Shown: piece after piece, positions 1 through 52,407 of the stretch
Position numbering within the stretch: position 1 is the stretch's first letter
Layout of the letters: every line of letters begins with the position of its first letter
Translations under genes and position numbers: made by a program
Assembly: GCA_017399265.1 (NCBI GenBank)
Contig: JAFQDL010000006.1
Span: 4,666 to 68,665 of the forward strand
Source of the DNA: Clostridia bacterium
Lineage (GTDB): Bacteria > Bacillota > Clostridia > Christensenellales > UBA1242
Length of the DNA: 64,000 bases
Reading direction: 5' to 3'
The notes under the pieces: generated by a model
Database searches by the model: none
Seen by the model: only the letters and a program-made list of their open reading frames with translations
Told to the model about the DNA's origin: nothing

Positions 1-1
1 A

Positions 2-2056: not shown

Positions 2057-2060
2057 TCCT

Positions 2061-2097
2061 ACTTGTCAAACTGGTTAGTTTGGCAAGTATTTTTTTT
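2061..2097 (+). terminator. Rho-independent terminator after recO
   Basis: An 11-bp stem (acttgtcaaac / gtttggcaagt, one G-U pair) is followed by a T8 run. Confidence 0.7.
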
Positions 2098-2206
2098 AAA
2101 ATTTAATATTTTTTTGGCGATATCTCTTGCTATTTGTATATTATTTTAATATAATAATTATCGGTATTTTAAAAAGCCGAATAAAAATAAAACAGGAGAA
2201 AAATAT

Positions 2207-4849
2207 ATGGCAAATAAATTTGTATATTTGTTCAAAGAAGGCAATGCCACTATGAGAGAAGTTCTTGGTGGTAAAGGTGCTAACCTTGCTGAAATGACAA
2301 AGATTGGTCTACCAGTTCCTCAAGGTTTCACTATTTCAACAGAAGCCTGCACTCAGTATTATGAAGATGGAAGACAAATCAATGACCAAATCAGAGCTGA
2401 AATAATGGAAAACATTGAAAAAATGGAAGAAATTACTGGCAAGAAATTTGGTGATAAAGAAAATCCTCTTCTAGTTTCTGTTCGTTCTGGTGCACGTGCA
2501 TCTATGCCAGGTATGATGGATACTATCCTTAACCTTGGTCTTAATGAAGAAGTTGTAGAGACTCTTGCTAGAAAGAGTGGTAATCCAAGATGGGCTTGGG
2601 ACTGTTACAGAAGATTTATTCAAATGTTCTCAGACGTAGTTATGGAAGTTGGTAAGAAATATTTCGAAAAACTTATCGATGCTATGAAAGAAGAAAAAGG
2701 CGTTGTATATGACGTTGATCTAACTGCAGAAGATTTGAAAGCTCTTGCTAACCAATTCAAAGCAGAATACAAAAATCAATTAGGAAAAGATTTCCCTAAT
2801 GATCCAAAAGAACAATTATTCGAAGCTATCAAAGCGGTATTCCGTTCTTGGGACAACCCTAGAGCAAATATCTATCGTATGGACCACGATATTCCTTATT
2901 CTTGGGGTACAGCTGTTAACGTACAAATGATGGTATTTGGTAACATGGGTGAAACTAGTGGTACTGGTGTTGCATTTACAAGAAACCCAGCTACTGGTGA
3001 GAAAGGCTTGATGGGTGAATTCTTAATGAATGCACAAGGTGAGGACGTTGTTGCAGGTGTTAGAACTCCAATGCCTATTGACAAGATGAAAGAGGTTATG
3101 CCAGAGGTATATGATCAATTCATCAATATTTGCAATATCTTAGAAAATCACTATCGTGATATGCAAGATATGGAATTTACAATCGAAGATAAGAAATTAT
3201 ACATGCTTCAAACAAGAAATGGTAAGAGAACAGCCGCTGCTGCTATCAAAATCGCTTGTGACTTGATTGATGAAGGTATGATCTCTGAGAAAGAAGCATT
3301 AATGCAAATTGATGCAAAGACTCTAGATATGTTACTACACCCAACATTCGATACTGCTGCATTAAAAGATGCTGACAAAAATAATGTTGTAGGTAAGGCT
3401 ATCGCTGCTTCTCCAGGCGCTGCTGCTGGTACTATTGTATTTACTGCAGAAGATGCTGTTAAAGAAGGCAAAGAGGGTAAGAAAGTTATCCTTGTTAGAC
3501 TTGAAACTAGCCCAGAAGATATCGAAGGTATGAAATATGCTCAAGGTATCTTGACTGTTCGTGGTGGACAAACTTCTCACGCTGCCGTTGTAGCTAGAGG
3601 AATGGGTACTTGTTGCGTATCTGGTTGTGGAGATATCAAGATGGATGAAGAGAACAAATGCTTCACTCTTGCTGGAAAGACTTTCAAAGAAGGTGATGTA
3701 TTGTCTCTAGATGGTTCTACTGGTACTATTTATGACTGCATGATCAAGACAGTTCCTGCTGATCCAAATAGCGGTTACTTTGGTAGAATTATGAAACTTG
3801 CTGACAAATATAAGAAACTTGGCGTTAAGACAAATGCTGATAGTCCTGCTGATGCAAGACGTGCTGTTGAACTTGGTGCTGAGGGTATTGGTCTATGCAG
3901 AACAGAGCATATGTTCTTCGATCCTGCTAGAATTGGTGCATTCAGAGAAATGATTTGTGCTGATACTGTAGAAGAAAGAGAAGCTGCTCTAGAGAAGATT
4001 GAACCTATGCAACAAGAAGACTTCGAAGGTCTATTCGAAGCACTTGAGGGTAGATCTGTTACAATCAGATTCTTAGATCCACCTCTACATGAATTCGTTC
4101 CAACTGCAGAAGAAGATATTGCTGCTCTTGCTAAAACTCAAGGCAAGACTGTTGCTCAAATTAAGCAATTAATTGCTGATCTTCATGAATTCAACCCAAT
4201 GATGGGTCACAGAGGTTGTAGACTTGCTGTTACTTATCCTGAGATTGCTGAAATGCAAACTAAGGCTGTTATCAAAGCTGCTATCGCAGTTCAAAAGAGA
4301 CATGCTGATTGGAAGGTAGTTCCTCAAATTATGATCCCACTTGTTGGCGAAATCAAAGAATTCAAATTCGTTAAAGATGTAGTTGTAAGAACTGCTGATG
4401 CTGTTATTGCTGAAGCTGGTGTAGAATTAACTTACGAAGTTGGTACAATGATGGAAATTCCAAGAGCTTGCTTAGTATCTGATGAAATCGGTGCAGAAGC
4501 AGACTTCTTCAGTTTCGGTACTAACGACCTAACTCAAATGACATTCGGATTTAGCCGTGACGATGCTGGTAAATTCTTACCATCATATTATTCAAGCAAA
4601 ATCTATGAGAGTGATCCATTTGCTAGATTAGATACTAATGGTGTTGGTAAATTAATGAAATTAGCTGTTTCTCAAGGTAGAGCTGCTAATGCTAAACTTC
4701 ATGCTGGTATTTGTGGTGAACACGGTGGAGATCCATCTTCTATCGAATTCTGCCACAGCATTGGTCTAAACTATGTATCATGCTCTCCATTCAGAGTTCC
4801 TATCGCTAGACTTGCTGCTGCTCAAGCTGCTATCAGAAGCGAGAAATAA
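2207..4849 (+). CDS. ppdK: Pyruvate, phosphate dikinase
   Basis: The 880-aa product shows full-length PPDK hallmarks: FGGKGANLAEM-type N-terminus, the phospho-His loop GGQTSHAAVVARGMG, and the C-terminal PEP-utilising TIM barrel (GLCRTEHMF, FFSFGTNDLTQ, SCSP). A strong SD and biased codon use are present. Confidence 0.97.
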   Translation: MANKFVYLFKEGNATMREVLGGKGANLAEMTKIGLPVPQGFTISTEACTQYYEDGRQINDQIRAEIMENIEKMEEITGKKFGDKENPLLVSVRSGARASMPGMMDTILNLGLNEEVVETLARKSGNPRWAWDCYRRFIQMFSDVVMEVGKKYFEKLIDAMKEEKGVVYDVDLTAEDLKALANQFKAEYKNQLGKDFPNDPKEQLFEAIKAVFRSWDNPRANIYRMDHDIPYSWGTAVNVQMMVFGNMGETSGTGVAFTRNPATGEKGLMGEFLMNAQGEDVVAGVRTPMPIDKMKEVMPEVYDQFINICNILENHYRDMQDMEFTIEDKKLYMLQTRNGKRTAAAAIKIACDLIDEGMISEKEALMQIDAKTLDMLLHPTFDTAALKDADKNNVVGKAIAASPGAAAGTIVFTAEDAVKEGKEGKKVILVRLETSPEDIEGMKYAQGILTVRGGQTSHAAVVARGMGTCCVSGCGDIKMDEENKCFTLAGKTFKEGDVLSLDGSTGTIYDCMIKTVPADPNSGYFGRIMKLADKYKKLGVKTNADSPADARRAVELGAEGIGLCRTEHMFFDPARIGAFREMICADTVEEREAALEKIEPMQQEDFEGLFEALEGRSVTIRFLDPPLHEFVPTAEEDIAALAKTQGKTVAQIKQLIADLHEFNPMMGHRGCRLAVTYPEIAEMQTKAVIKAAIAVQKRHADWKVVPQIMIPLVGEIKEFKFVKDVVVRTADAVIAEAGVELTYEVGTMMEIPRACLVSDEIGAEADFFSFGTNDLTQMTFGFSRDDAGKFLPSYYSSKIYESDPFARLDTNGVGKLMKLAVSQGRAANAKLHAGICGEHGGDPSSIEFCHSIGLNYVSCSPFRVPIARLAAAQAAIRSEK

Positions 4850-7082: not shown

Positions 7083-7116
7083 AAAAAAGTGAGATTATAT
7101 AATCTCACTTTTTTAA
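7083..7116 (-). terminator. Rho-independent terminator of the coupling-protein gene
   Basis: The stem agtgagatt/aatctcact is flanked by A/T runs, directly after the stop codon at 7113-7115. Confidence 0.8.
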
Positions 7117-9167
7117 AAGTCAAATGGGTTATTGCTTGCGTTTGCGCCAGCTCCTGTGTTATCAGCTCCACCACGAAGTATTTTGTTGTTACGAATCTTA
7201 ATATCATAATACATTTCTGCTTCATTAATAGGTTGAGGAACTCTGTATGGATCTACAGCTTTATTCATATCATAAAATTGTCTTGCTTTATAACTAGGAG
7301 TAAATACAGATCTGATAGGGTTTTGTTGCAAGATATATACTATACATTCACCAGAGTTTGGTTTTAATGAAGCCAATTCTGCTGGATATATAAGAGGACG
7401 GCTTTCTACGGATACCGATGTAGAAGTGCTTCTGTTATATCCATTTTCTTTTGTGCTGTCTTTATTTTTAGATTCAGATATATTCTCAGTCTCAACTGTT
7501 GTTTCACCGCAACGTTTACTAAATTTTTCTAGCGTACCTTGGTCATTTGATGTTATAAATATGTGAATATTACAGTTATCTTCTACCGTAGCCGCGACTT
7601 CGTTTCCGTACTTGGTTGTAAGCTGTACGTATGATTGAAGAATAAGTGTGAAGAATATTCTTCTAGAACGTGCAACGGTAATGATTGTGTCAAAGTTTTG
7701 TATTTTTGGCATGTTACCAAATTCGTCAAGTAGGAAGAATACATCACGAGGTAATGCTCCACCATTAGCATTGGCGCTAGCAACTAGTATCTTATAGAGC
7801 TGCGATATGAACATTGTCGCAATTGGGTGACGAGTAGTTTTTTCGTCAGGAATCTTAATGAATAGGGCAGTAGGTTGTTCTGCAAAGTCTTCTAACTTCA
7901 TATCATTCCTACTTGTAGCAAAACATATACCTGCGTCACTAAACAAGCCCATTCTTTCTGTTACGATACCCATATAAGATTTTGCAGTTTTCTCAGAGTT
8001 TGCTACGACTTGGTTGGCAAGTTGTGTGGCTAGACTTAGTTGGTCTCTACCTTGGAAATATTCTTGCAAAGACTTAATAGGGTTGTATTGATCATTGTCT
8101 TTTACGTTCAATATTTTACTCAAGTTGAAGAAATTGAATTTCTCTTTTGTCATACCTAGATTTGGATTTTCGCTATCTTCCATCATAGCAAGCATTGTAC
8201 CAAATATTAGGTCTTTGGCACCTCTTTCCCATATAGGATCATTGTTAGATTCGATAGGGCAAAGGGTTGCAGCTAAGTCTTTTAAATCTTCGAATGAGTC
8301 GTTCTTAAGTACTTGTCTTACACCTTCTAGATGTGCTTTTAGTTCAGGTTCGTTGGAGAATGCATAACCATCGAATTCGTACCATGTTCTAAAATATTCT
8401 TTGTTTACACACTTTAGTCCATAAGTTCTAGGATCGTCACCATGGTGTACTTTTACTTCTTTGTTTAGATTTAGAGCACGCATATTCATTTCATATGCTC
8501 TAGTCATAGGATTCCAGCATGTGCTTTGGAAGGGTTCTTTTAAGTCAAATACTAGTACTCTATATCCACGTTTTCTTAATTTCTCGCTATGGTTTTCGTA
8601 TATTTCACCTTTAGGGTCTGTTACAACTAAGCAAGGCTTTGCAGCACTCTCTGCTAATATTTGTACTGTAGGGTCTACGAATTGTGTTGTTTTACCAGAA
8701 CCGGTTGTACCAATTACTAGGGTATGGATAGCCTTGTACATATTGACACATAGTCTATTTTTTACCATCTGTGCTCTGATTGGTACACCAATATTCTTGG
8801 AAGAACTTAACTGGTCGTAATAGTGGAATTTGAATTGAGAGTCTGTTCTTAATTCTTTCTCTGACATCCATCTAGTTTCGTAGAATTTGTTACCTTTCTT
8901 GTTAACAACCTTAGCACCAGAATGACTTCTGCCAAACAATCCAAATCCTTTTCCGTTAAAGCCAAGTAGAAAGAATAAAACGATTAAAGTTGCAATAATC
9001 AGGAATGCAGATGTAAAACTAGGATTTGTAAAAACCTCAAAGCTGAATTTGAATGAACCAAAAGTAATAAATGTAGCAGTTGTGTATGCTCCAGCAAAGG
9101 ATGCTACAACAGTAAATACTATAAACAAGAGAATGCTACCAAATGTTATTTTTCTATCATCTGACAT
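7113..9167 (-). CDS. Type IV secretion coupling protein (VirD4/TraG/TraD family ATPase)
   Basis: Two N-terminal TM helices are present. Motifs seen are Walker A GTTGSGKT, VVTDPKGE, and Walker B / TraG-D_C-like FFLLDEFGNMPKI followed by ARSRRIFF. The SD is gaggtga. Confidence 0.85.
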   Translation of the reverse strand: MSDDRKITFGSILLFIVFTVVASFAGAYTTATFITFGSFKFSFEVFTNPSFTSAFLIIATLIVLFFLLGFNGKGFGLFGRSHSGAKVVNKKGNKFYETRWMSEKELRTDSQFKFHYYDQLSSSKNIGVPIRAQMVKNRLCVNMYKAIHTLVIGTTGSGKTTQFVDPTVQILAESAAKPCLVVTDPKGEIYENHSEKLRKRGYRVLVFDLKEPFQSTCWNPMTRAYEMNMRALNLNKEVKVHHGDDPRTYGLKCVNKEYFRTWYEFDGYAFSNEPELKAHLEGVRQVLKNDSFEDLKDLAATLCPIESNNDPIWERGAKDLIFGTMLAMMEDSENPNLGMTKEKFNFFNLSKILNVKDNDQYNPIKSLQEYFQGRDQLSLATQLANQVVANSEKTAKSYMGIVTERMGLFSDAGICFATSRNDMKLEDFAEQPTALFIKIPDEKTTRHPIATMFISQLYKILVASANANGGALPRDVFFLLDEFGNMPKIQNFDTIITVARSRRIFFTLILQSYVQLTTKYGNEVAATVEDNCNIHIFITSNDQGTLEKFSKRCGETTVETENISESKNKDSTKENGYNRSTSTSVSVESRPLIYPAELASLKPNSGECIVYILQQNPIRSVFTPSYKARQFYDMNKAVDPYRVPQPINEAEMYYDIKIRNNKILRGGADNTGAGANASNNPFDF

Positions 9168-9224
9168 AATGTCACCTCGATATATTATTGACTAGATTTG
9201 TAAAAAATTTTACCTTGTATATAT

Positions 9225-9253
9225 AGTTTATAATAACTATTTGACATTGTCAA
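9225..9253 (-). promoter_or_regulatory. Putative sigma-A promoter for the coupling-protein gene
   Basis: On the minus strand the element reads TTGACA-N17-TAAACT. The -35 box lies within the palindrome ttgacattgtcaa. Confidence 0.4.
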
Positions 9254-9522
9254 AGAATATAATAATCTTTGAAAAATAGAAAAAATTATAAGAAAAATAA
9301 TTATTTGTAAGAGTATAAAATGACAGATATTAGCAAAAGATAAAATATATATCATAGTGGGCAATTATTTGCTAATTAATCTTATGTAATAATTGCAAAC
9401 AATGCCTATTTTTGTCAAAAAAATGTTTTTTTTAAAATATATCTAAATTATTTTGGAAAATCGTTTATCTATGCTATCATTAAATAGATTTCAAAAATAA
9501 ATGAAAAAAGGAAGAAGATATT

Positions 9523-9867
9523 ATGTTGAAATTAATGAATTTTTTTAGTTTTTTATTGGCGCCAGATTTTAGTGGAGCTCCTGATGGTATCAAGGAAATA
9601 ATGGTAAAGATATATGAAGTTATAGAATCTATTGTTGTTCCAGTTATTATTTTGGTTGCTACTGTTGGTATTATTTATGCTATTGTTCTTGGTGTAAATT
9701 ATGCTAAGGCAGAGACTAGTGACGCAAAAGAAGAAGCTAAAAAACGTATTATTAACGTTGTAGTAGGTGCAGTACTTATTATTGTATTAGTATTATTAAT
9801 GTATCTATTCATCAGTAATGCAGATGCAATTTTTGGATGGGCTGCTCAGGAAGGGGGTATTGCGTAA
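9523..9867 (+). CDS. Small two-TM protein, VirB2/TrbC pilin-like
   Basis: The 114-aa product has a hydrophobic N-terminal leader and two long TM helices separated by a charged loop (YAKAETSDAKEEAKKR), which is the VirB2/TrbC topology. It is divergent from the T4CP gene. The assignment rests on architecture only. Confidence 0.4.
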   Translation: MLKLMNFFSFLLAPDFSGAPDGIKEIMVKIYEVIESIVVPVIILVATVGIIYAIVLGVNYAKAETSDAKEEAKKRIINVVVGAVLIIVLVLLMYLFISNADAIFGWAAQEGGIA

Positions 9868-31328: not shown

Positions 31329-31368
31329 AAAAACTTTATGATTGATAGCGGTCATAAAGTTTTTTTTA
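31329..31368 (+). terminator. Rho-independent terminator after pnp
   Basis: An 11-bp stem (aaactttatga/tcataaagttt) is followed by a T-run. Confidence 0.8.
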
Positions 31369-31422
31369 CTTTATCTATATATTTCTATATATAATATTAG
31401 TATTTTTCAAAAAATTGGGTAT

Positions 31423-31451
31423 TGATTTTTGTATACTTGGTGTGTTATAAT
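31423..31451 (+). promoter_or_regulatory. Sigma-A-type promoter of the five-gene paralog array
   Basis: The element reads TTGATT-N17-TATAAT with a TGt extension. Confidence 0.6.
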
Positions 31452-31482
31452 AATTTTACGAAAAAATTATGGGAGAATTATT

Positions 31483-31995
31483 ATGAGTAACGAAATAAAA
31501 AAAGAAACATGGTTTGATACTTTTGATCCAGAAGTAGCCTTTTATATTATGAAGGAAAAATTTCCAAGCCAAATAGGAAAGTATGCTTATCCAAGATTTA
31601 CTAAAGGCAATAACAAGAAAGGTCATGAAATTATATTGATGGATACTTTCAATAATCATTCGCCTAATTGGTATTTTAATCAATTTGGATATTTAGGTTG
31701 GAATCATTTATTTGCCGATGAGAAAGCCGTTATTGGCGACGATTTGGATCGTACTGGCGCTTGGTTTGAAGTAATGAGCACTTTAAATAAAGATAGAAAG
31801 ATTGATGGGAAAAGTTACGTCGAAGCATTTACTGAATATCACTTACAAAATATAAAATCCAAATTTGATAATGATCAACATAAAAGTCAGTATATAATGG
31901 AACTTGCTAACAGAGAAAAAGATAGAGCTTTAAAAGCATTGGAGTCAACTACTTCTATATCTTTAGAGAATACAGATGTGGAGATGGGAGAGTAG
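31483..31995 (+). CDS. Paralog array protein 1 (170 aa), uncharacterised family
   Basis: I prefer the start MSNEIKKETWFD, after SD gggaga. It shares ETWF, WFEVM..NKDRKIDGKSYVEAFTEYH and a C-terminal VEMGE with the following genes. Confidence 0.7.
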   Translation: MSNEIKKETWFDTFDPEVAFYIMKEKFPSQIGKYAYPRFTKGNNKKGHEIILMDTFNNHSPNWYFNQFGYLGWNHLFADEKAVIGDDLDRTGAWFEVMSTLNKDRKIDGKSYVEAFTEYHLQNIKSKFDNDQHKSQYIMELANREKDRALKALESTTSISLENTDVEMGE

Positions 31996-32001
31996 TAGAT
32001 T

Positions 32002-32520
32002 ATGTACAAAGATACTTGGTTTGAAAATTTAGATGAAAATATGCTTAGTGATAAGTTGGCAGAAAAAGAATTGCGTTATGTAGGATTAAGTGCTGCTTGG
32101 ACTTTTGGTGATGATGGTAGAATTGTTATATCTGTTGCAGTAAGACCTCCAGTAGGTTCAAGTGAAAATGATATGGGATTAGGTGAAGATACATTATATT
32201 TTAATGAGTATGGAGTAGTAGATCTTACTAAATCTGGTTATGGTCCAGCAAAATTAAAAGATGAAAAACATCTTACAGAAATGTGGTTAGGTGTGATGAG
32301 AGATTCTAATAAAGATATAAGAATTAACGGACATGCTTATATGGAAGATTTCGTTAAATATCACAAGAGTAATATTATGGCATCTTATAATAAAAAAGTT
32401 AAAGAGTTAGATGATTATAGAGCGATTGTAGAAAGAGTGAAAGATAATAATATACAAGCATTATTTGATATGACTGGGTTGGATCTTTCTCAAGACCATC
32501 AAGAAGAGATGGGGGAATAG
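32002..32520 (+). CDS. Paralog array protein 2 (172 aa)
   Basis: Shared blocks: KDTWFENLD, FNEYGVV, TEMWLGVMRDSNKDIRINGHAYMEDFVKYH, and the tail HQEEMGE. The gap to gene 1 is 6 nt. Confidence 0.75.
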   Translation: MYKDTWFENLDENMLSDKLAEKELRYVGLSAAWTFGDDGRIVISVAVRPPVGSSENDMGLGEDTLYFNEYGVVDLTKSGYGPAKLKDEKHLTEMWLGVMRDSNKDIRINGHAYMEDFVKYHKSNIMASYNKKVKELDDYRAIVERVKDNNIQALFDMTGLDLSQDHQEEMGE

Positions 32521-32523
32521 ATA

Positions 32524-33045
32524 ATGAGTTATAAAGATACATGGTTCGAAAATCTTGACAAGGATTTATTAAGCGAAAGATTAGCAGAAAAAGGAAGGGT
32601 ATTTGTTAAAACTGTTAGCGGTTGGACTCTAAGTGAAGATGGTAAGCCAGTAATTGAGATTATTACAAAAAGAAGTGTTGGCACTAGTGAGAATGCTATA
32701 GGAATGGGAGAAGATATAATTTCATTTAACGAATATGGAGTTGTTGAGTGGAGCAAAACTGGCTATACTACCGCTAGATTAAAAGATACTGATAAATTCA
32801 CAGAAATGTGGTTAAAAGTCATGAGAGAGTCTAACAAAGATGTAACAATCAATGGTCATACATATATGGAGGATTTTATATCTTATCATAAGGCAAATAT
32901 TGATTATAGATATAATAAGAGAATACATGAATTAGAATTCTATATGAGTTTGACAGAAGGGCAAAAAGAAAAAGGTTATGAGGTCTTGTCTAAAATGGTT
33001 GGACAAGATATAACCAACACTCATCAAGAGGAAATGGGAGAATAA
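32524..33045 (+). CDS. Paralog array protein 3 (173 aa)
   Basis: This is the closest paralog of protein 2 (KDTWFENLD, FNEYGVV, TEMWLKVMRESNKDVTINGHTYMEDFISYH, HQEEMGE). The gap to gene 2 is 3 nt. Confidence 0.75.
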   Translation: MSYKDTWFENLDKDLLSERLAEKGRVFVKTVSGWTLSEDGKPVIEIITKRSVGTSENAIGMGEDIISFNEYGVVEWSKTGYTTARLKDTDKFTEMWLKVMRESNKDVTINGHTYMEDFISYHKANIDYRYNKRIHELEFYMSLTEGQKEKGYEVLSKMVGQDITNTHQEEMGE

Positions 33046-33047
33046 TA

Positions 33048-33443
33048 ATGAGTAAATGGGATTGTTATGATGATAATGTCATATGTGCAATAAGTGCAGT
33101 ATTAGAAGATTTAGGTGAAAAAGTACTTACGTATAAGCAAGGTTTGGTGATTATAAAAGACGAAAACAATCCTGACAACTGTTCTTTTCAGTCAGTTTTA
33201 TCCATTACGACTAGAGTTGATATAGATAGTAGGGCGCATAGTATTAATGTTAGACGATTTAATGCGTATGGGTTTATGGACTGGGACGAAAACAAACAAT
33301 TAAGAAATATTTATGGTCACCCATTGACAGATAAATGGTATAATATTATGCGGCATTTTAATAGTGATAAAAAAGTAGATGGAAGATCTTACGAAGAGGC
33401 TTTTGCAGACTATTACAAAAGAGAACGAGAAAACGAAATGTAA
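33048..33443 (+). CDS. Paralog array protein 4 (131 aa), divergent and truncated member
   Basis: It retains FNAYGFMDW and KWYNIMRHFNSDKKVDGRSYEEAFADYY. It lacks the ETWF block and the long C-terminal tail. The gap to gene 3 is 2 nt. Confidence 0.65.
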   Translation: MSKWDCYDDNVICAISAVLEDLGEKVLTYKQGLVIIKDENNPDNCSFQSVLSITTRVDIDSRAHSINVRRFNAYGFMDWDENKQLRNIYGHPLTDKWYNIMRHFNSDKKVDGRSYEEAFADYYKRERENEM

Positions 33444-33453
33444 GGAGAAAAAT

Positions 33454-33996
33454 ATGAATAACGAACAAAAGAGAGAAACTTGGTTTGATAGGGTAGATCT
33501 AAGAGATATAAGAAGTAAATTTTTAGGACTAAAGATGTTAAGTAATTTTCCGCTAGAAGTATTATTAGAAAAAACAGATGTTGATGGAAATCCTGTTCGT
33601 GTTTTTAGTGTTGGGAATAAATCTAACAAACTATTGGTTGCATTTAATGAATTTACGTATACATATTTTGGAGTGGTAGATAAGGATAAGAGACCTGGTC
33701 TTTATCCAATGGGATATATACCAACTGATTTGACAGATAATAGAACTAAAACTTGGTTTGAATTGGTGAGTAATGCAAATAAAGGTAGAACTATTGACGG
33801 TAAAACTTACGAAGAGGCTTTTATTAGTTATCACCAAGAAAAACTTAATGAAAAGTATGATTCAAAGATTGAGAATTTAAAACAACAACAAGATGTTTTG
33901 CAACATATGAGAGATAAAGAAGTTTCTGAGATTTACGATTTTGTTGGAATTGATCAAAAGAGCATCAAAGATTCTGAACCGGAGATGGCGGAATAA
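33454..33996 (+). CDS. Paralog array protein 5 (180 aa)
   Basis: I prefer the start MNNEQKRETWFD after SD aaggag, because the track ORF 33379 overlaps gene 4. Shared blocks: TWFELVSNANKGRTIDGKTYEEAFISYH and the tail PEMAE. Confidence 0.7.
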   Translation: MNNEQKRETWFDRVDLRDIRSKFLGLKMLSNFPLEVLLEKTDVDGNPVRVFSVGNKSNKLLVAFNEFTYTYFGVVDKDKRPGLYPMGYIPTDLTDNRTKTWFELVSNANKGRTIDGKTYEEAFISYHQEKLNEKYDSKIENLKQQQDVLQHMRDKEVSEIYDFVGIDQKSIKDSEPEMAE

Positions 33997-34114
33997 ATAT
34001 GTTAAAAAAGTGGACTAGTTCTGCTTTTTTTATTTAATAATGTATTTTCAAATATTATAGTTTTTGTAAATTTTGTGTTATACTACAGATATATTATAGG
34101 AGAGTTTCTGAGAA

Positions 34115-34537
34115 ATGAGAAAGTCAATGTGTTTAGTTTTGTTGTTGTGTATATGTTTTCCTTGCATGTTCTTTGTAGGATGTGGGGGAGATAGTGGTAC
34201 TCCAATAGGTATATATTATGTTTCAAAGGTAGTCGATACCAAGAATGAAACGATTATTAACAGAGAAGATTTTGAATTAATTGGCGAGGAATATGTAACT
34301 TTAATAGATGCAATTATTTACATAAATGAAGATGGTACTTACAAAAAAGCACTTGTGAATGAGAATAGCGTGTCGTATCTTATTGATGGCACTTGGACTC
34401 AGTCCGGCAAAACATTGACTCTTATCAAGCCAACAATAACTGAAGAGGAAGATGCAGAAAAAGAAACAGCTACTTTTCAAAATAATTCTTTAATATTTAC
34501 AGAAGAAAATATACAGATTGTATTTGCTAAATTATAA
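34115..34537 (+). CDS. Small lipoprotein (140 aa), unknown function
   Basis: The signal peptide carries a lipobox (FFVGCGGD). Confidence 0.6.
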   Translation: MRKSMCLVLLLCICFPCMFFVGCGGDSGTPIGIYYVSKVVDTKNETIINREDFELIGEEYVTLIDAIIYINEDGTYKKALVNENSVSYLIDGTWTQSGKTLTLIKPTITEEEDAEKETATFQNNSLIFTEENIQIVFAKL

Positions 34538-34582
34538 AAAAAGATGACTAAGCAAAAAAACTTAGTCATCTTGAATTTTTTT
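34536..34582. terminator. Bidirectional terminator shared by the lipoprotein gene and the SRP RNA
   Basis: A 12-bp stem (aagatgactaag/cttagtcatctt) is flanked by A6 and T7 runs. Confidence 0.8.
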
Positions 34583-34587
34583 AAAAA

Positions 34588-34859
34588 ACCGTGCAATTAG
34601 CCTCGAGACTGCCGTGCATAGCCATTATTAATTCTATGCTCAACTAAAGCTTCCTTATGGCACATAGGCAAATCCACTTAATGATGCTTCCTTCCGGACC
34701 TGACATGGTTCATGGCAGTCTATTGCATAAGACCTTAATATCAACACATAGCAAAAATAATTAAACTAGGCACTCAAACGCCCCTCATGCTAACATTCAG
34801 TCCTGCGTATAGTTGGTTTCAGGTAACAGGGCACAACTAACTCCCCACCTAGCACGGTA
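34588..34859 (-). ncRNA. ffs: Signal recognition particle RNA, long Bacillus/Clostridium type with Alu domain (about 270 nt)
   Basis: The minus strand contains the invariant domain IV motif GTCAGGTCCGGAAGGAAGC (rc of 34686-34704). The 5' CCGTGCTAGGTGGGGAGTTAGTTGTGCCCTGTTACCTGAAACC closely parallels the B. subtilis scRNA 5' end. The 3' end GCACGG pairs with the 5' CCGTGC. The region is GC-richer than its surroundings and has no ORF. Confidence 0.9.
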
Positions 34860-43615: not shown

Positions 43616-43648
43616 AAAAATAACTATTTAATCAATAGTTATTTTTTT
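43613..43648. terminator. Bidirectional terminator between sigF and the convergent ttcA-like gene
   Basis: The stem aataactatt/aatagttatt is flanked by A7 and T7 runs. Confidence 0.75.
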
Positions 43649-44472
43649 AAATTCATAGTTGATGTATATTCTTTGCCTTCTGTTTTGTAGCCGACAAATG
43701 TATCAAGATTGACTTGGTGAATACTGCTAAGAATATTATCTTCTATCATTTCATTTGTTTCTTTTAGTGATTTGATCAGATTTTTGATTTCTAATCTCTT
43801 TGAGGTAATATCTTCATCGTTATTTTTTTCTGTAAATCTACAAGCGCATCTTATAAATTCTAAGTTGTTATATTTTACCCAATTTTCAATAGCTTCTTCT
43901 TTTATTCTAAAAAGAGGTCTTATAAGTTGCATTCCTTTGAAATTTGTTGAATTAAGTTTTGGGAGCATGCCTTGTAATTGAGCTCCGTAAAACATTGCGA
44001 TAAGAGTTGTTTCTATAACGTCATTTTGATGATGGCCTAAAGCAATCTTGTTGCAGCCTAAATCTTTAGCAAATTTGTATAAGCAGCCTCTTCTCATTCT
44101 TGCGCATAGGTAGCATGGATTCTTTGGAGTGGAGTTTGCCACATCAAATATATTGGAATTAAAAATTTTGATAGGTATGTTTAGTAGTTTTGCATTTTCT
44201 TCAATCTTTTCTCTGTTTTTTGCATTATAGCCAGGATCCATAACTATGTATTCAAGTTCAAATGGTACATCAGAAAATTTCTGCAAATTTTGCATCAGTT
44301 TTGCAAGTATAAAAGAGTCTTTGCCACCAGATATACACACAGCTATTTTATCATTTTCATCTATTAATTCATATTCTTTAATTGCTCTTATGAATGGTGC
44401 CCATATAGATTTTCTGAATTTAGTAATTAGGCTCCTTTCAATCATTTTATCTTTGGTTAATTCTCTAGACAT
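43639..44472 (-). CDS. PP-loop ATPase, tRNA 2-thiocytidine biosynthesis TtcA-like
   Basis: The PP-loop CISGGKDS is present, with CxxC (CYLCARMRRG) and a second Cys pair (CACRF). Confidence 0.7.
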   Translation of the reverse strand: MSRELTKDKMIERSLITKFRKSIWAPFIRAIKEYELIDENDKIAVCISGGKDSFILAKLMQNLQKFSDVPFELEYIVMDPGYNAKNREKIEENAKLLNIPIKIFNSNIFDVANSTPKNPCYLCARMRRGCLYKFAKDLGCNKIALGHHQNDVIETTLIAMFYGAQLQGMLPKLNSTNFKGMQLIRPLFRIKEEAIENWVKYNNLEFIRCACRFTEKNNDEDITSKRLEIKNLIKSLKETNEMIEDNILSSIHQVNLDTFVGYKTEGKEYTSTMNLKK

Positions 44473-45152
44473 ATTAATTCCTTTATTACATATTCGGCAA
44501 GCATAAGGCCTGCAATAGCAGGTAGGTATGATATGCTCGCAGGTGAGTGTTTCTTTTCATCATTAACAATTATATTTCTTGACTCTTCTTCAGAATATAA
44601 CACTGTTAGATGATTAATATTGTTCTCTTTACACAATTTTCTCATTACTTTAGCTAATTTGCAGTAATTTGTTTTGGAGATATCTGTTATTTTTAACTTT
44701 GTAGAGTCTAGTTTGTTTCCTGTGCCCATGCAAGATATAATAGGAATGTGAAGAGAATTACATTTCTTTATTATCTCTAATTTAGCAGTAATTGTATCAA
44801 TTGCGTCAATTACATAATCAAATATAGTAAAGTCAATATTATTTATATTATCAGGTAGAACAAACATTTTGTATTTTACAATTTTAATATTAGGATTGAT
44901 ACTTTTGGCTCTAGATTCTGCGATATCGACTTTATTTTTACCTATTGTATCATTTGTACAAAGGATTTGCCTATTAAGGTTGGTTTTATCGAAAGTGTCG
45001 TTATCAAATATATGTATTTCTCCAACTCCTGCTCTAACTAAGGCTTCAAATGCAAATCCGCCCACTCCGCCAAGTCCGAAAAGTGCGATTTTGGAGCTTT
45101 GTAATTTTATTAAATTGTCGTTACCTATTAAAAGTTCTGTTCTTTCAAACAT
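44457..45152 (-). CDS. tcdA: tRNA threonylcarbamoyladenosine dehydratase (ThiF/E1-like) TcdA
   Basis: The Rossmann motif FGLGGVGGFAFEALVRAG is present, with DNDTFDKTNLNRQ. The length of about 230 aa fits. It overlaps the ttcA-like gene by 16 nt. Confidence 0.8.
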   Translation of the reverse strand: MFERTELLIGNDNLIKLQSSKIALFGLGGVGGFAFEALVRAGVGEIHIFDNDTFDKTNLNRQILCTNDTIGKNKVDIAESRAKSINPNIKIVKYKMFVLPDNINNIDFTIFDYVIDAIDTITAKLEIIKKCNSLHIPIISCMGTGNKLDSTKLKITDISKTNYCKLAKVMRKLCKENNINHLTVLYSEEESRNIIVNDEKKHSPASISYLPAIAGLMLAEYVIKELICLEN

Positions 45153-45228
45153 TTGTTTTTTCCTTTAAAAAATTTACTTAGATAGTATACAAAAAAGTAT
45201 CTAATTAGTCAATAGTTTTTAAAATTAG

Positions 45229-45259
45229 TAAAAAAGTGAGTTTTAATCACTCACTTTTA
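45229..45259 (-). terminator. Rho-independent terminator of the 785-aa gene
   Basis: The stem aaaagtgag/ctcactttt overlaps the stop codon. A T-run follows on the minus strand. Confidence 0.75.
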
Positions 45260-47614
45260 AAGTTCTTTTGTTTGTTCATTTGTTGGATTGGCATCTATCT
45301 CATATCTAGTTAAAATTTTATTTCTTTTTGCTTCTAAAAGGGCTTTTTGATAAATTTTAGCACTTTGATATCTACTATGACTATCTTCCAAGTCCTTAGC
45401 TCTCCAGATTGTTTCAGATATTGCGTCTTTGGCTATAGTTTTAGTCGCTCCTAAGAATTTATCGAATGCATCTTTGAAATTTTTAAACTTACTGGTCACG
45501 CCTCTTAGAATTTGAGTTGGTCGCTTTGCTTCTCTTCTTTGCCATGCTGCATTATTTTCAAAATATTCTTGATTGTTTTCTTCATTGTAATAAAGAGTTG
45601 TTTCATCACCAATGATTAAACTGTCTCCATTATTTATTACTTGACCAATTCTTTCGTTATTGTTTTTGTCAAAATAGGTAAATAATGCTACATTATCTTC
45701 TAGTGTATAAATTATAGAGTCTGTGTCGGTAACATGAGGTGTGCTTTTGTAAAAGGGTTTAATTGTGTCATTTAATTGCAATTTCTGTTTTATTTTTGTC
45801 TTAGCGTGTATATTGGACTGACTCTGTAATGGGATAGGTTGATATCCATTTTCGGTATCCTTATATGCTATAATGCCTGCATTGGTTGATGCAATTAAAT
45901 ATGTAGCACCATTGTCTGTTGTAATTTCTTTAAAATGGCGTATGCTTAAGTTTGGATTGCTTTCGATAACTTTATCTATTTGGTGCATCGCTTCCATATT
46001 ATTAAGTAGTGCTATGTTTGATTTTACTTTTTTTTCTCTTTTTGCTTGTTCTTTTGCTAAGTCTATTTCGTATACATTTTCTGAGGTCCCAACTAAAAAT
46101 TTATTACTGTCTGTTCCTCTAGGGATTATTGTTAGACTTTCTTGTTGATCATTTTGCCGATTTCTTGCAGTTAGTGAATATTTTCCTTTTTGTGGTTCTA
46201 CCAAAATATTGATTGAATGATCTGATGTGTCGGAATAATCTGCTGTGTCAAATCTCAAGTGTTCTTTTGGATTTTTACCTAGGAATGTTGTAATTCTATC
46301 TTTGTATGATACAACAAAATCATTTTCGTCATATGCACTGATTACAAAATCAGAATTTGGTAGATAGAATGTTCGGTTTATATTATTTGAATTGTCTTCA
46401 ATAGTATCTCTTAAGATTTCTGAGAACTTTTTACGATCTTCTGGGTTACTTGTTTTATTGGCAGCAACAGCTTGTATTGCTGCTTTAATTTCTAACTTGT
46501 ATTTGCTGCCATATTTGATATTTTCATCTTTAATAGGGGCTTCGGCTTGGATAGTGCTAATAATACTTATTATGTGATCAATTGAATATTTATCAGGGTA
46601 TTCTTTAATTCTATTAAGAATACTTGTGCATATAATGTCATGCGCTCTGTTGTAGTCAGGATCAGTTTCATAATTAGCAGTGTAGTTGGATTGTACCCAT
46701 TTTTGATGAAAATTCTCACAATATTCGTTTACTTTTCTAAAATTTTCTTCACCAATTGCTTCGGCATAATTTTCCAAGTTTAGGGATAAGAAATTATTAA
46801 AATTTATATCCCTGCCTGTAATGGCATTTAGAAGTTTTACTATGTTTACATGAGGTACATAAGAATTGCTTTCGGGATAAATTTGTTGTGTTAGACATTC
46901 TGTTAATCCTTCAGTAAAAAAAATATTATTTAGGAGAATGTTGGAAAATTTTGGTTTGTCAACTTTATTTCCCTGTTCATCTAAGATGCTAGCAAAGTGT
47001 TTAAATTTATCTGCGGTGTCAGTTTCGCTTATTTTTAAAGTTCTATAAGTATTATTTTCATTAAAGTAAAGGTTTTTTATCCCAAGTGTTATAAAATGTA
47101 TAAATTCATGGCAAAGTATATCTTCTACTGAGTTTCTATATTTTAAGTATTTTTCATTTAAAGTGATATCTCTATCTCCGCCAGAGTATCTTTTCAAATT
47201 ACCTGAAGTGTTATCACTTAAAGTCTCGTCTATTACTAAAGTTAAATCTCTTTTATTGTCTATGATAGATTTAACTACGGCATCGTAATCTACTACATCA
47301 TAAAATCCATGTTTTTGGAAATGCTCGTCCATTTTGTCTAACATTTTCCCATAAGATTTTAGCATAGAAACAAATTTTTTAAGCCTTATATCTTCGTTTT
47401 TGAAGGATCTCTCTTCGTATGAGTTGTACTGATACCAAAAATTTGGCAAAGCAGCCTTTAGTTTTTGAAAAGGTGTATCACCAGTCTTAAACTTTGGTCG
47501 TAGACTATATGGTATATGATATAGACTTTTGTATGCTGTGTTGTTTATTATTTGTTTATCTTTATTTTTATTTTTAAAAGATTCTAATAATGTTTTATCC
47601 ATAATTTTCTCCAA
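45257..47614 (-). CDS. Large hypothetical protein with HExxH...E zincin-like motif, paralog 1 (785 aa)
   Basis: CHEFIHF (HExxH) is followed about 60 aa later by FTEGLTE. There is no signal peptide or TM helix. It is homologous over its whole length to the adjacent 623-aa protein, with an extra insert of about 160 aa near the C-terminus. Confidence 0.7.
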   Translation of the reverse strand: MEKIMDKTLLESFKNKNKDKQIINNTAYKSLYHIPYSLRPKFKTGDTPFQKLKAALPNFWYQYNSYEERSFKNEDIRLKKFVSMLKSYGKMLDKMDEHFQKHGFYDVVDYDAVVKSIIDNKRDLTLVIDETLSDNTSGNLKRYSGGDRDITLNEKYLKYRNSVEDILCHEFIHFITLGIKNLYFNENNTYRTLKISETDTADKFKHFASILDEQGNKVDKPKFSNILLNNIFFTEGLTECLTQQIYPESNSYVPHVNIVKLLNAITGRDINFNNFLSLNLENYAEAIGEENFRKVNEYCENFHQKWVQSNYTANYETDPDYNRAHDIICTSILNRIKEYPDKYSIDHIISIISTIQAEAPIKDENIKYGSKYKLEIKAAIQAVAANKTSNPEDRKKFSEILRDTIEDNSNNINRTFYLPNSDFVISAYDENDFVVSYKDRITTFLGKNPKEHLRFDTADYSDTSDHSINILVEPQKGKYSLTARNRQNDQQESLTIIPRGTDSNKFLVGTSENVYEIDLAKEQAKREKKVKSNIALLNNMEAMHQIDKVIESNPNLSIRHFKEITTDNGATYLIASTNAGIIAYKDTENGYQPIPLQSQSNIHAKTKIKQKLQLNDTIKPFYKSTPHVTDTDSIIYTLEDNVALFTYFDKNNNERIGQVINNGDSLIIGDETTLYYNEENNQEYFENNAAWQRREAKRPTQILRGVTSKFKNFKDAFDKFLGATKTIAKDAISETIWRAKDLEDSHSRYQSAKIYQKALLEAKRNKILTRYEIDANPTNEQTKEL

Positions 47615-47685
47615 GCAAATTTTATCTATTATAATTATATCATAAAGCCTTTATTTTAGCAAGTTTGCTGTACTGATACAAATAA

Positions 47686-47710
47686 AAAAGTGAGTAGGAA
47701 CTCACTTTAT
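47686..47710 (-). terminator. Rho-independent terminator of the 623-aa gene
   Basis: The stem aaagtgag/ctcacttt overlaps the stop codon. A T-run follows on the minus strand. Confidence 0.7.
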
Positions 47711-49578
47711 ATTACGTATTCACATTTATTTTTGTTATCGATAAATTCATTTTCGTAAAAGTTATATTGGTAGTCAATAAAATTTTTATCTTTTTTTGCA
47801 GTGTTAATAGCGTTGCGGTAAATTAAAGCATTTTTATAGTCGGTAACGCTATAACACAATGCTTTTTTCAACTTGTCTATAATGTAATCAACTGTTTTTA
47901 TACTATTTTGTGTTGATTCTTCTGTGGTTAAATCAGGTTGTGTGATTGTTTCCATATTTTTAAGAATATCGAGGTCGTGATTTATCTTAGATTGTCTCTT
48001 ACTTTGTTCTATTGTAAAATCTATGATAAATGAGTTGTTTTCATTTTGTACTAAAAATTTATCACTTCCTTTTCCTTGAGGAGTAATTATTACCCTATCT
48101 ATTTCTCTGCTTTCGTGATTTATTGCATGAAGAGTATAAGAATTTGTTGAAGGGTTGATCTCTACATAGATTTCTCTCTCTTTTTCTCTGCTAAAATCGC
48201 TAGTGCATAATTCAATTCCTTGTTGTGTATTTTTTGCTAACAAATGCTTGGAATTGCCTTTATAGGAAACAAAAAATTCCTCTTTATTACATGCTTGAAG
48301 TATAAAATCTGAGTCAGGCAAATAAAATAATTTATTTGTGTTATCTGCATTATCCGCTATAACATCTCTTAAAAGTGTATAAAATATTCTACGATCTTCT
48401 ACATTAGTGGTTTTTGAAGCAGCTACTGATTGAATAGTAGCTTTAATTTCTAAATCGTATTTGTCTCCATCTCTTATATCTTCATCTATAATAGGTGCCT
48501 TTGCTTTAATTGCACTTATTATGTCTACGATTTTTTCTGTCGAATAATTATTTGGGTTTTGTTTAATGTTATTGAGTATTGTAGTACATACTATATCTTG
48601 TGCTCTATTATAGTCAGGGTCTGTTTTGTAATCAAGAGTGGCGTTTGATAGTTGCCATTTTGTATGAAATTCGTTGCAATAATCATTTATTAGTCTAAAG
48701 TTGTCTTCTCCAAAAACTGCCGCGTAATTATCTAAATTTGATTTTAAGAAGTTCCTAAAATTAATGTTACCACCAGTAATTTTGTTAAGGAATTTGATCA
48801 TTTTTACTTGCGGTAAATATGCATTGTAAGAATCAGGATATATTAAGTTTGTTAAATATTCGGTAAAGCCTTCTTTGATAAATTGGTGATTATCATTAAC
48901 TAAAATATTACCCAGTGTAGGTTTGGAAATAATATTGCTGCTGCAATCTAAAACAAGAGTATATAAATTATTATCATAGTCTTCTTGTAAATAATCTATA
49001 ATTTTTAATTTTTTTGGAGTTGAATTTTCAATATATGAAAGTTCTGATATTCCAAAAACTAAAAAATGTATGAATTCATGGCAAATAGTTGACTCTGAAT
49101 CAATTCCAGGTTGTACATATTGTGGATTCATTTCTAGATAGCAATAATCTTTGGCGTCTCTTGTTATTTGTCCTGCGTAACTTGTATCAGTTTCGTCAAT
49201 TATAATGTTAAAACTTTGGCTACCATCAAGAATAGAGTTTATTATTTGATTATAATCCACCTCATCATAATAATGATTTTTTGTAAAATATTCATCCATT
49301 CTACTTAGTGCGTTGCCAAAAGATTTTGCCAAAGATACTATATTGTTTAATCTCATTTGCATGTTTTCTTCGCTTGCTTCCTCAAAAGAACTATACCCAA
49401 ATTCAAAATTGGGTAGTTGTTCTCGTAGCTTTAGAAGAGGTGTGGTTCCTTTATCGAATTGAGGTCGCTGGTTTTCTGGGATAAAATAATTATCAAAATG
49501 AATTTTTTTATAATTGCCTAATTCTTTTACTTTTCGTTTTCTTCTTTCCAAAAACACATTTATTACGTCTTTTTTCAT
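47707..49578 (-). CDS. Large hypothetical protein with HExxH...E zincin-like motif, paralog 2 (623 aa)
   Basis: CHEFIHF and IKEGFTE are present. Blocks shared with paralog 1 include LPNF.., MDE(H/Y)F.K...YD.VDY, TDPDYNRA(H/Q)DI(I/V)CT.ILN.IK, and AP I.DE(N/D)I..G.KY.LEIKA.IQ.VAA.KT.N.EDR. Confidence 0.7.
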   Translation of the reverse strand: MKKDVINVFLERRKRKVKELGNYKKIHFDNYFIPENQRPQFDKGTTPLLKLREQLPNFEFGYSSFEEASEENMQMRLNNIVSLAKSFGNALSRMDEYFTKNHYYDEVDYNQIINSILDGSQSFNIIIDETDTSYAGQITRDAKDYCYLEMNPQYVQPGIDSESTICHEFIHFLVFGISELSYIENSTPKKLKIIDYLQEDYDNNLYTLVLDCSSNIISKPTLGNILVNDNHQFIKEGFTEYLTNLIYPDSYNAYLPQVKMIKFLNKITGGNINFRNFLKSNLDNYAAVFGEDNFRLINDYCNEFHTKWQLSNATLDYKTDPDYNRAQDIVCTTILNNIKQNPNNYSTEKIVDIISAIKAKAPIIDEDIRDGDKYDLEIKATIQSVAASKTTNVEDRRIFYTLLRDVIADNADNTNKLFYLPDSDFILQACNKEEFFVSYKGNSKHLLAKNTQQGIELCTSDFSREKEREIYVEINPSTNSYTLHAINHESREIDRVIITPQGKGSDKFLVQNENNSFIIDFTIEQSKRQSKINHDLDILKNMETITQPDLTTEESTQNSIKTVDYIIDKLKKALCYSVTDYKNALIYRNAINTAKKDKNFIDYQYNFYENEFIDNKNKCEYVI

Positions 49579-51837: not shown

Positions 51838-52407
51838 ATGAATAAAAAATTTTTGGTTGTTATCTCAATATTATTTTTACCTATAACATTACTATTTTTT
51901 ATAGTAAAATTTTTTATCAAACTTATAGAAAACAAACGAATAAAATCGTTTTTAAATGGGATTACAATCAATGATATAGATGCGATTACCGGTTATCAAT
52001 TTGAAGAAATAGTAGCTTATTTATTCAATTATTTTAGATTTAAGGCAAAGACTACTAAGCGTTCTGGAGATTATGGAGTAGATATATTTGCCACAAAAAA
52101 CAATATTAAATATTGTATTCAAACTAAATTGTATTTTGGTCACAAAGTTGGTTCTAGTGCTGTGCAAGAAATCAATACTGGAAAAAATTATTTTAATTGT
52201 GATTATGCCATAATTATGACTAATTCGTTTTATTCAAAACAGGCACTTGACATGTCTGATAAGCTTGGTATAATCTTATTTGATAGAAACGATGTTGCAA
52301 AATTACTATTAAATTATAAGAATAATAACAAGAGATATTTGAAGAAATTAATGGAGGTGAAGATCAATGGAAGAAATTCTACACATTTTATTACACGCGC
52401 TTATTGA
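51838..52407 (+). CDS. Membrane-anchored Mrr-like (PD-(D/E)xK) restriction endonuclease domain protein
   Basis: An N-terminal TM helix is followed by an Mrr_cat-like core (GYQFEEIVAYLF..., GDYGVDIFA, CIQTKLY, AIIMTNS.YS.QA). No obvious SD is present. It overlaps the next gene by 41 nt. Confidence 0.6.
   Translation: MNKKFLVVISILFLPITLLFFIVKFFIKLIENKRIKSFLNGITINDIDAITGYQFEEIVAYLFNYFRFKAKTTKRSGDYGVDIFATKNNIKYCIQTKLYFGHKVGSSAVQEINTGKNYFNCDYAIIMTNSFYSKQALDMSDKLGIILFDRNDVAKLLLNYKNNNKRYLKKLMEVKINGRNSTHFITRAY

Follow-up and report, generated by a model that had tools for sequence, protein, structure and literature searches.

The question raised by this locus is what five small, mutually similar genes of no recognised family are doing between pnp and the signal recognition particle (SRP) RNA gene. 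The genes occupy positions 31483-33996 of the 64,000-nucleotide (nt) stretch analysed here (the window), taken from contig JAFQDL010000006.1 of a Clostridia bacterium assembly (GCA_017399265.1), and a first-pass annotation made from the sequence had described them as a single-promoter array that might represent an immunity, anti-toxin, anti-defence or binding-module repertoire. Our analysis revealed a tandem, diversifying array of small proteins from a new family, with a predicted fold new to PDB and BFVD, which behaves like a conflict-type repertoire; its function is a matter of inference and is weighed below against the alternatives.

A tandem array of five diverged paralogs

The array consists of five plus-strand open reading frames (ORFs), here called members 1 to 5: m1 (31483-31995; 170 amino acids, aa), m2 (32002-32520; 172 aa), m3 (32524-33045; 173 aa), m4 (33048-33443; 131 aa) and m5 (33454-33996; 180 aa), the last gene of the array. 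The intergenic gaps are 6, 3, 2 and 10 nt, and both these and the ORF lengths were reproduced in the ORF list and in the raw sequence as first annotated. Pairwise identities in a MAFFT alignment ranged from 25 to 53%, the five being true paralogs, with m2 and m3 mutually closest as had been proposed (53% identity, their repeats D1 and D3 being ~70% identical at the DNA level). A family hidden Markov model (HMM) search found no further copy elsewhere in the 64 kb. Alignment also recovered the three shared blocks of the earlier description, but m4 has a degenerate N-terminal block (KWDCYDD) and m5 a degenerate central one (YTYFG). The tails noted for four of the five members were reproduced (EMGE in m1, m2 and m3; EMAE in m5), whereas m4, described from the outset as tail-less, comprises the head domain only and ends shortly past the third block. 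As expected from the initial reading, no transmembrane segment or signal peptide was detected in m1-m5 (maximum 19-residue hydropathy ≤1.13).

Across the family, the conserved core comprises an N-terminal W-[FL]-[DE], FNxYG, and W..[MV]...N.G..I.G.TY.EAF..H, and these motifs are common to members that are ~20% identical and lie in different genomic contexts. Column conservation peaks in the helix3-hairpin-helix4 core and at the N-terminal W-[FL]-[DE]; the least conserved columns are those of the b1-b2 hairpin and the loops, which also carry indels, and conservation climbs again at the last four residues, past a poorly conserved linker. An enzymatic role was considered unlikely, the near-invariant residues being W, G, Y and F, while the polar N, E and H are substituted in several members. 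DNA mimicry was rejected on the grounds of an only moderately acidic isoelectric point (family median 5.3).

A lineage-restricted family without described relatives

When 1.84 billion cluster representatives were searched exhaustively with hmmsearch, 31 proteins were returned at E ≤ 0.001, all of 79-216 aa and of the same architecture; word-indexed protein searches recovered few of these, and the exhaustive HMM search was needed. Nearly all members come from ENA or Logan metagenome assemblies, the source being animal-gut metagenomes, and none carries a protein name. Comparison of m1-m5 with Pfam, NCBIfam, PHROGs and PADLOC (E up to 1 for Pfam and PADLOC) gave nothing above noise, none of the five matching any PADLOC defence model; no Pfam or PHROGs family recurred among all 31 members at E up to 10, and a profile search of all PDB sequences returned coiled-coil noise only. 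Together with the fold searches described below, these results bear out the first-pass description of the family as unrecognised: it is lineage-restricted, cytoplasmic and previously undescribed. Matches of m1-m5 to HSP70, DltD, CdiA_C_tRNase and GldL were sub-threshold and non-recurrent and were rejected as chance.

The described immunity families in Pfam (Imm, SUKH/SMI1, CdiI) likewise gave isolated sub-threshold matches only, with CdiI_2 matched in one of the 31 members (E 0.055) and CdiA_C_tRNase at E 0.16, neither of them recurrent, and DUF600 (PF04634) was matched neither by m1-m5 (E up to 1) nor by the 31 members (E up to 10). By these searches the family belongs to no known immunity family.

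Searches of mobile-element collections were also negative: a motif scan of IMG/VR, which covers members with the I[ND]GxTYx[ED]AF motif, gave chance matches only, and tblastn with m5 found no match in INPHARED phages or PLSDB plasmids. Since the family has no phage or plasmid match and the GC content of the array (31.7%) equals that of the host (window, 31.6%), the anti-defence possibility raised at first is disfavoured, as it would require a phage or mobile origin. A motif scan of JGI metagenomes gave chance matches only among the matches listed, and a Pseudomonas locus from a GTDB genome scan was discarded as spurious, the match being confined to the 10-residue search pattern. One apparent fusion, P0033 (208 aa; locus L015, ERZ25021427 NODE_338114), is 95% identical to m2 over its first ~135 residues and continues as unrelated sequence with a weak LemA match; its contig has a coverage of 0.65x, and it was set aside as a probable assembly chimera. 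Three distant members (P0019, P0020 and P0031; 206-216 aa) carry an extra C-terminal segment of ~50 aa with the form (L)I(V)xxFLxxMxxxExxxWLxxNG[FY], which resembles a helix-extended-helix/SAP-like motif.

A predicted fold with a head, a stalk and a tail

With the family alignment as input, AlphaFold2 gave confident models for m2 (predicted local distance difference test score, pLDDT, 88.4; predicted template modelling score, pTM, 0.77) and for m4 (pLDDT 92.5, pTM 0.83). In the models, short N-terminal helices lead into a five-stranded antiparallel sheet, then a helix and a short hairpin, to which full-length members add a helix of ~45 residues followed by a lower-confidence tail. This helix has heptad-like spacing and is probably an oligomerising coiled coil. 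Foldseek searches (significance at E ≤ 0.001) with the full-length m2 model found no analogue in PDB or BFVD and, because the long helix could dominate the m2 matches, the naturally stalk-less m4 model was also compared with PDB, again without an analogue; no PDB match reached the significance level. LptE and DUF302 were rejected as fold relatives (best template modelling score, TM-score, ~0.3; E 0.06-0.5). As modelled, the fold is novel relative to PDB and BFVD.

Could the family instead be a very remote member of a characterised one, such as a known DUF or an immunity protein of the Imm/SUKH type, lying below detection? We regard this as very doubtful. The fold libraries compared were PDB and BFVD, two-layer alpha/beta architectures are common, and the weak LptE and DUF302 matches indicate a fold class that is nothing exotic, all of which would leave room for such a relationship; set against this are the lack of any Pfam or PHROGs family recurring in the 31 members with E relaxed to 10, the empty PDB profile search and the low TM-score of the best Foldseek match.

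Turnover between relatives

The same pnp/SRP-RNA interval is occupied by family members in two relatives, and it was here that the proposed check of copy number could be made. In a sister species (locus L002; pnp 85.9% identical in DNA and 98.0% in protein), the site has the same promoter, a truncated 48-aa remnant and three full members (182, 168 and 177 aa), whereas a more distant relative (L007; PNPase 92.5% identical) has a single member, giving copy numbers of 5 in the window, 3 plus a remnant, and 1. The L002 remnant (2046-2204, identical in L003 at 51-209) lies directly behind the conserved promoter and is 5'-truncated, with just the third block and a portion of the stalk left (HMM E = 1e-14).

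The closest cross-species pair, m1 and the 168-aa protein of L002, is 41.7% identical, and all other pairs are 20-35% identical. By the Nei-Gojobori method, this pair has a non-synonymous divergence (dN) of 0.50 and a synonymous divergence (dS) of 0.88 (dN/dS, omega, 0.57), compared with dN 0.018, dS 1.13 and omega 0.016 for pnp and dN 0.068, dS 1.47 and omega 0.047 for the CBS gene between the same two species. On these estimates, the array gains amino-acid change ~30 times faster than its neighbour, or else that members have been swapped.

Variation within the species

Contigs from other metagenomes span the whole array, and pieces of the array differ by 2.0-3.2% per base among them, compared with 0.5-1.7% in the flanking sequence. 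ORF disruption in close relatives had been named as an observation that would count against the array, yet several independent metagenomes carry the complete set of five undisrupted ORFs and no frameshift was seen in m1 or m2 of other strains. The ratio of non-synonymous to synonymous polymorphism (pN/pS) for the array is ~0.15-0.5 among strains (0.15-0.19 for m1, whose strain variants are 97% identical), which indicates that the genes are maintained by selection.

One m5 allele from a bovine gut metagenome (run X5) is mosaic, with ~40 substitutions and 6 small indels in 33655-33772; the affected residues (~68-107) lie between the FNxYG-type and W..N.G blocks, and outside them the gene is near identical. 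This pattern reads as the signature of a recombination tract that swapped a variable segment between conserved blocks, and repeat analysis showed that conserved DNA blocks and gene junctions recur throughout the array.

These data also bear on the suggestion that the array is a functionless or selfish remnant, either decaying mobile-element cargo or neutrally drifting duplicates. The family is very rare, L002 holds a truncated remnant, m4 is tail-less, and the pnp-ffs interval, which also holds a species-specific lipoprotein-like ORF, may be an insertion-tolerant spot. Decay or drift is nevertheless highly improbable given five ORFs intact in independent metagenomes with pN/pS below 1, conserved promoter and Shine-Dalgarno sites, motifs kept by members of ~20% identity in different contexts, and a host-like GC content with no phage, plasmid or IMG/VR match.

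Host and genomic contexts

Judged from the genes of the window, the host is an uncultured, low-GC (31.6%), anaerobic, spore-forming Firmicute, the markers being PFOR, a spoIIAA-AB-sigF-type operon, YabP/YqfD and tig-clpP-clpX, and the window, itself a gut-metagenome scaffold, recurs in gut or faecal metagenomes, bovine and ovine among them. Family members were placed in seven contexts, with up to 10 kb per side: the window, L002, L007, L008, L012, L164 and L165. Three tandem members lie between rplJ-rplL-yitT and rplI in L008, one member is upstream of degV in L012, one lies between 5S and 16S rRNA genes near spoIIGA-sigE-sigG in L164, and one adjoins a rubrerythrin gene in L165. Several of the contexts thus border genes of the translation apparatus (rpsO-pnp/ffs, rplJL/rplI, 5S/16S rRNA), and the family is chromosomal, in housekeeping neighbourhoods, with its members single or in tandem. 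The L164 arrangement (1-4165; GCA_052849535.1, JAZXZD010000009.1) is unusual in that the member and a 162-aa membrane protein lie between 23S-5S and 16S rRNA genes.

No toxin, secretion-system, integrase, enzyme, mobile-element or recognised defence gene was found beside a member in the seven contexts, nor were toxin, LXG, WXG100 or EssC genes found near members within these limits. The observation that no partner gene adjoins the array accordingly extends across the 64 kb and to six other contexts.

Expression signals

The upstream limit of the transcription unit is set by the intrinsic terminator of pnp (31329-31364, plus strand; terminator scan), which is kept in L002. It is followed by a plus-strand sigma-A-type promoter at 31422-31451 with TTGATT, an 18-nt spacer ending in TGt, and TATAAT (an extended -10), matching 10 of 12 consensus positions with the TG present; both hexamers and the TG are kept in L002 and L003. 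The promoter first annotated is therefore present and conserved in relatives, although its spacer is of 18 nt rather than 17. Promoter-like sites within the array show no excess (23, compared with 20.6 expected in shuffled sequence), and a GGAGA-type Shine-Dalgarno sequence lies 5-9 nt upstream of every start codon from m1 to m5. The terminator scan found no terminator-like site within the array, as first stated; the companion statement that none follows it directly needs amending, because RNA folding placed a weak, A/U-rich terminator-like hairpin followed by a U-run at 34004-34030 on the plus strand (-7.8 to -9 kcal/mol, z = -2.0), and the array is thus not wholly terminator-less. This hairpin fails the G+C-rich criterion of the terminator scan. 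On these signals, the array is probably a translationally coupled operon driven by the single sigma-A promoter.

The class of promoter is relevant to another explanation, in which the members would be subunits of a lineage-specific structural assembly, coiled-coil hetero-oligomers of, for example, a sporulation or envelope scaffold, that evolve fast through relaxed constraint. The paralogs are co-translated and each carries a long amphipathic helix, coat-type proteins lack signal peptides and are lineage-specific, and the hosts are spore formers (sigF operon, YabP and YqfD in the window; spoIIGA-sigE-sigG in L164). A sporulation role is disfavoured, however, because the promoter is of the conserved sigma-A type with an extended -10 and not of the sigma-E, -K, -F or -G type; in addition, copy number ranges from 1 to 5 among relatives, one member is entirely without the stalk, and the mosaic, loop-centred variation resembles selection on specificity. 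We consider a structural assembly unlikely.

Gene junctions and the C-terminal tail

Inspection of the junctions (31980-32004, 32506-32526, 33031-33050, 33432-33456 and, upstream of m1, 31469-31490) showed that the tail codons GAG ATG GGA GAR plus stop form the Shine-Dalgarno sequence of the next gene when the spacer is 2-6 nt. Tail-less upstream proteins (m4 and the 182-aa member of L002) have GAA ATG TAA GGAGAA, an identical element but for a stop two codons earlier; in m4, whose last residues are ...ENEM, the TAA stop precedes GGAGAA. For m1 itself, the Shine-Dalgarno sequence derives from a plus-strand segment of its 5' untranslated region (31469-31482, ATGGGAGAATTATT). The slightly longer stretch at 31469-31490 (ATGGGAGAATTATTATGAGTAA) is 91% identical to the junction of the m3 tail and the m4 start at 33034-33055 (repeat D9), and because of this match the m1 ribosome-binding site looks like a fossil of the 'M-G-E-stop' tail of a lost upstream member, a reading that fits the remnant still lying between the promoter and the first full gene in L002.

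Approximately 13 of the 31 members end in [ED]x[ML][GA][ED]. Since its codons double as a Shine-Dalgarno sequence, the motif is partly a nucleotide-level feature, but it is kept in the single-copy gene of L007, in last-in-array genes and in distant members, which suggests that a protein-level role of the peptide remains likely. A second tail class in the family ends in hydrophobic-x-K in place of MGE. The notion of a Pup/UBact-like modifier with a C-terminal G-E was dropped, since these are folded proteins of ~170 aa whose tail does not read GG[QE], and the window contains no PafA/Dop-type ligase.

The tail lends itself to an explanation by physiology, in which the proteins would be adaptors or regulators docked by their tails to some conserved machine of the host, such as a Clp unfoldase, the ribosome or a secretion ATPase, while the heads pick cargos, with an SspB-like logic. 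The terminal [ED]x[ML][GA][ED]-COOH of the single-copy and last-in-array genes, the rise in conservation at the last four residues past a poorly conserved linker and the contexts that border translation genes all point this way. On the other side, the SspB, MecA and ClpS families of Pfam are unmatched, many members have no motif or other tails, the motif codons serve as Shine-Dalgarno sequences, and a copy number that ranges from 1 to 5 in close relatives is not what a housekeeping adaptor usually shows. Such a role is rather unlikely in our assessment.

A possible repertoire of intracellular binders

The reading that we favour, though well short of confidence, is that the array is a birth-and-death repertoire of intracellular binders built of variable head, coiled-coil stalk and conserved C-terminal peptide, comparable to strings of orphan immunity genes. 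Each protein is predicted to present a compact alpha/beta head whose core is conserved and whose beta-hairpins and loops are variable and indel-rich, followed by the ~45-residue helix as a putative oligomerising coiled coil and a short flexible linker closing in the acidic peptide [ED]-x-[ML]-[GA]-[ED]-COOH. The array would evolve by birth and death and by exchange of segments between conserved blocks and gene junctions, and the binders may neutralise or sense variable incoming proteins, for example interbacterial toxins or phage proteins, the variable head, presumably under diversifying pressure, providing specificity and the stalk and tail a shared means of oligomerisation or docking. The immunity, anti-toxin or binding-repertoire proposal of the first-pass annotation is consistent with the change in copy number, an omega of ~0.57 compared with 0.016-0.05, the raised diversity and the mosaic allele; the case is nonetheless circumstantial, with no link to a toxin, phage or defence gene.

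Several observations weigh against a binder or immunity repertoire. Immunity families normally sit beside their toxin in at least some genomes, whereas no toxin, secretion-system or defence gene adjoins a member in any of the seven contexts, and this absence argues against a classical toxin-immunity cassette. The coiled-coil stalk and conserved C-terminal peptide are atypical of known immunity proteins, and part of the conservation of the tail may be nucleotide-level, its DNA being the ribosome-binding site of the next gene. With averaged dN/dS below 1, positive selection is not demonstrated, and the compared pairs may be non-orthologous, which would inflate dN. The mosaic m5 allele rests on a single contig of 3.8x depth.

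A bolder extension of the binder repertoire is a modular recognition system in which swappable heads would capture foreign toxins or phage proteins and the stalk and E-M-G-E peptide would pass them to a host machine such as a Clp-type unfoldase or protease. We think this improbable; if true, it would constitute an adaptor-based, repertoire-type innate immunity, unlike one-to-one toxin-immunity pairs, built on a fold unrepresented in PDB and BFVD.

Should the array be a binder or immunity repertoire, it would represent a layer of conflict, between bacteria or with phages, that has gone unrecognised in uncultured ruminant-gut Firmicutes, and a new fold among immunity-type scaffolds, and its conserved core, swappable loop segment, stalk and terminal peptide might serve as a natural binder scaffold. 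Function aside, the locus is an island evolving ~30-fold faster at non-synonymous sites than its near-invariant housekeeping neighbours, and at its junctions a single sequence specifies a protein tail and, at the same time, the ribosome-binding site for the following gene.

Other features of the window

The placement of the array between pnp and the SRP RNA was right as to the interval, but a lipoprotein-like ORF of 140 aa (34115-34537) intervenes and the SRP RNA (34589-34857) is on the minus strand. This ORF has an N-terminal hydrophobic segment, an FVGC lipobox-like motif, its own promoter-like site and weak, sub-threshold DUF6786 and DUF5004 matches, and neither L002 nor L007 has it in this interval; between it and the SRP RNA lies a bidirectional terminator hairpin (34541-34572).

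Farther away, a four-gene minus-strand cluster (43639-49578) encodes a PP-loop ATPase (276 aa), a ThiF/E1-like protein (230 aa) with a match to the E1 portion of PADLOC E1-E2 models, and two large paralogs (784 and 622 aa) whose sole motif is that of a SprT-like zinc-protease; the ThiF/E1-like gene is 10 kb from the array, and the cluster is possibly an uncharacterised conjugation-like or defence-like system. A lone minus-strand gene for a TraG/VirD4-type coupling protein and a small ORF that has a weak match to a type IV secretion system pilin (7113-9867) adjoin the PFOR gene; because no other conjugation genes are nearby, this region is probably the remnant of an integrated element. A Mrr_cat restriction-endonuclease-like gene (51838-52407) adjoins a mechanosensitive-channel gene ~18 kb downstream of the array.

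Comparison with known systems

SspB-type protease adaptors bind substrate with a globular, oligomerising head, from which a linker leads to a short conserved docking peptide at the C-terminus. The layout predicted here for the array proteins (head, linker and C-terminal peptide) is the same, but there is no homology in Pfam, the tail is an acidic E-M-G-E where SspB has a basic XB peptide, and SspB is single-copy and slowly evolving, unlike the array family.

Gut Bacteroidales, according to what Ross et al. are said to have reported in 2019, carry acquired interbacterial defence or orphan immunity islands, with many unrelated immunity families, on mobile elements with recombinases. Diverse arrays of immunity-type genes without cognate toxins, a dense gut community and a shared promoter are common to those islands and the present array; unlike them, the array holds a single family, has no mobility genes and is host-like in GC content.

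The nearest described parallel is provided by the EsaG (DUF600) and TipC strings of Firmicutes with type VIIb secretion (Garrett et al. 2022, PMC9484751). Membership of the EsaG or TipC families fails every sequence and structure test: there is no DUF600 sequence match and no structural match among solved structures, EsaG included. The array family further differs in that no type VII secretion system or LXG/EsaD-type toxin gene is nearby in any context, and in its coiled-coil stalk, conserved C-terminal acidic peptide and core housekeeping neighbourhoods. In organisation, by contrast, the two are alike. Both are tandem sets of non-identical, small cytoplasmic paralogs in low-GC Gram-positives, with few conserved blocks split by variable segments, and both show shifts in copy number between close relatives and recombination between paralogs. 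In the esaG and tipC strings, the conserved blocks mediate recombination, loss and expansion of the tandem immunity paralogs (PMC9484751), and such strings are also carried without a toxin, as orphan immunity, much as the array here is carried with no toxin gene nearby. The string-like organisation of EsaG-type genes is likewise found in the window and its relatives, namely five paralogs with three shared blocks, repeated DNA blocks, a mosaic allele and a copy number of 5, 3 or 1.

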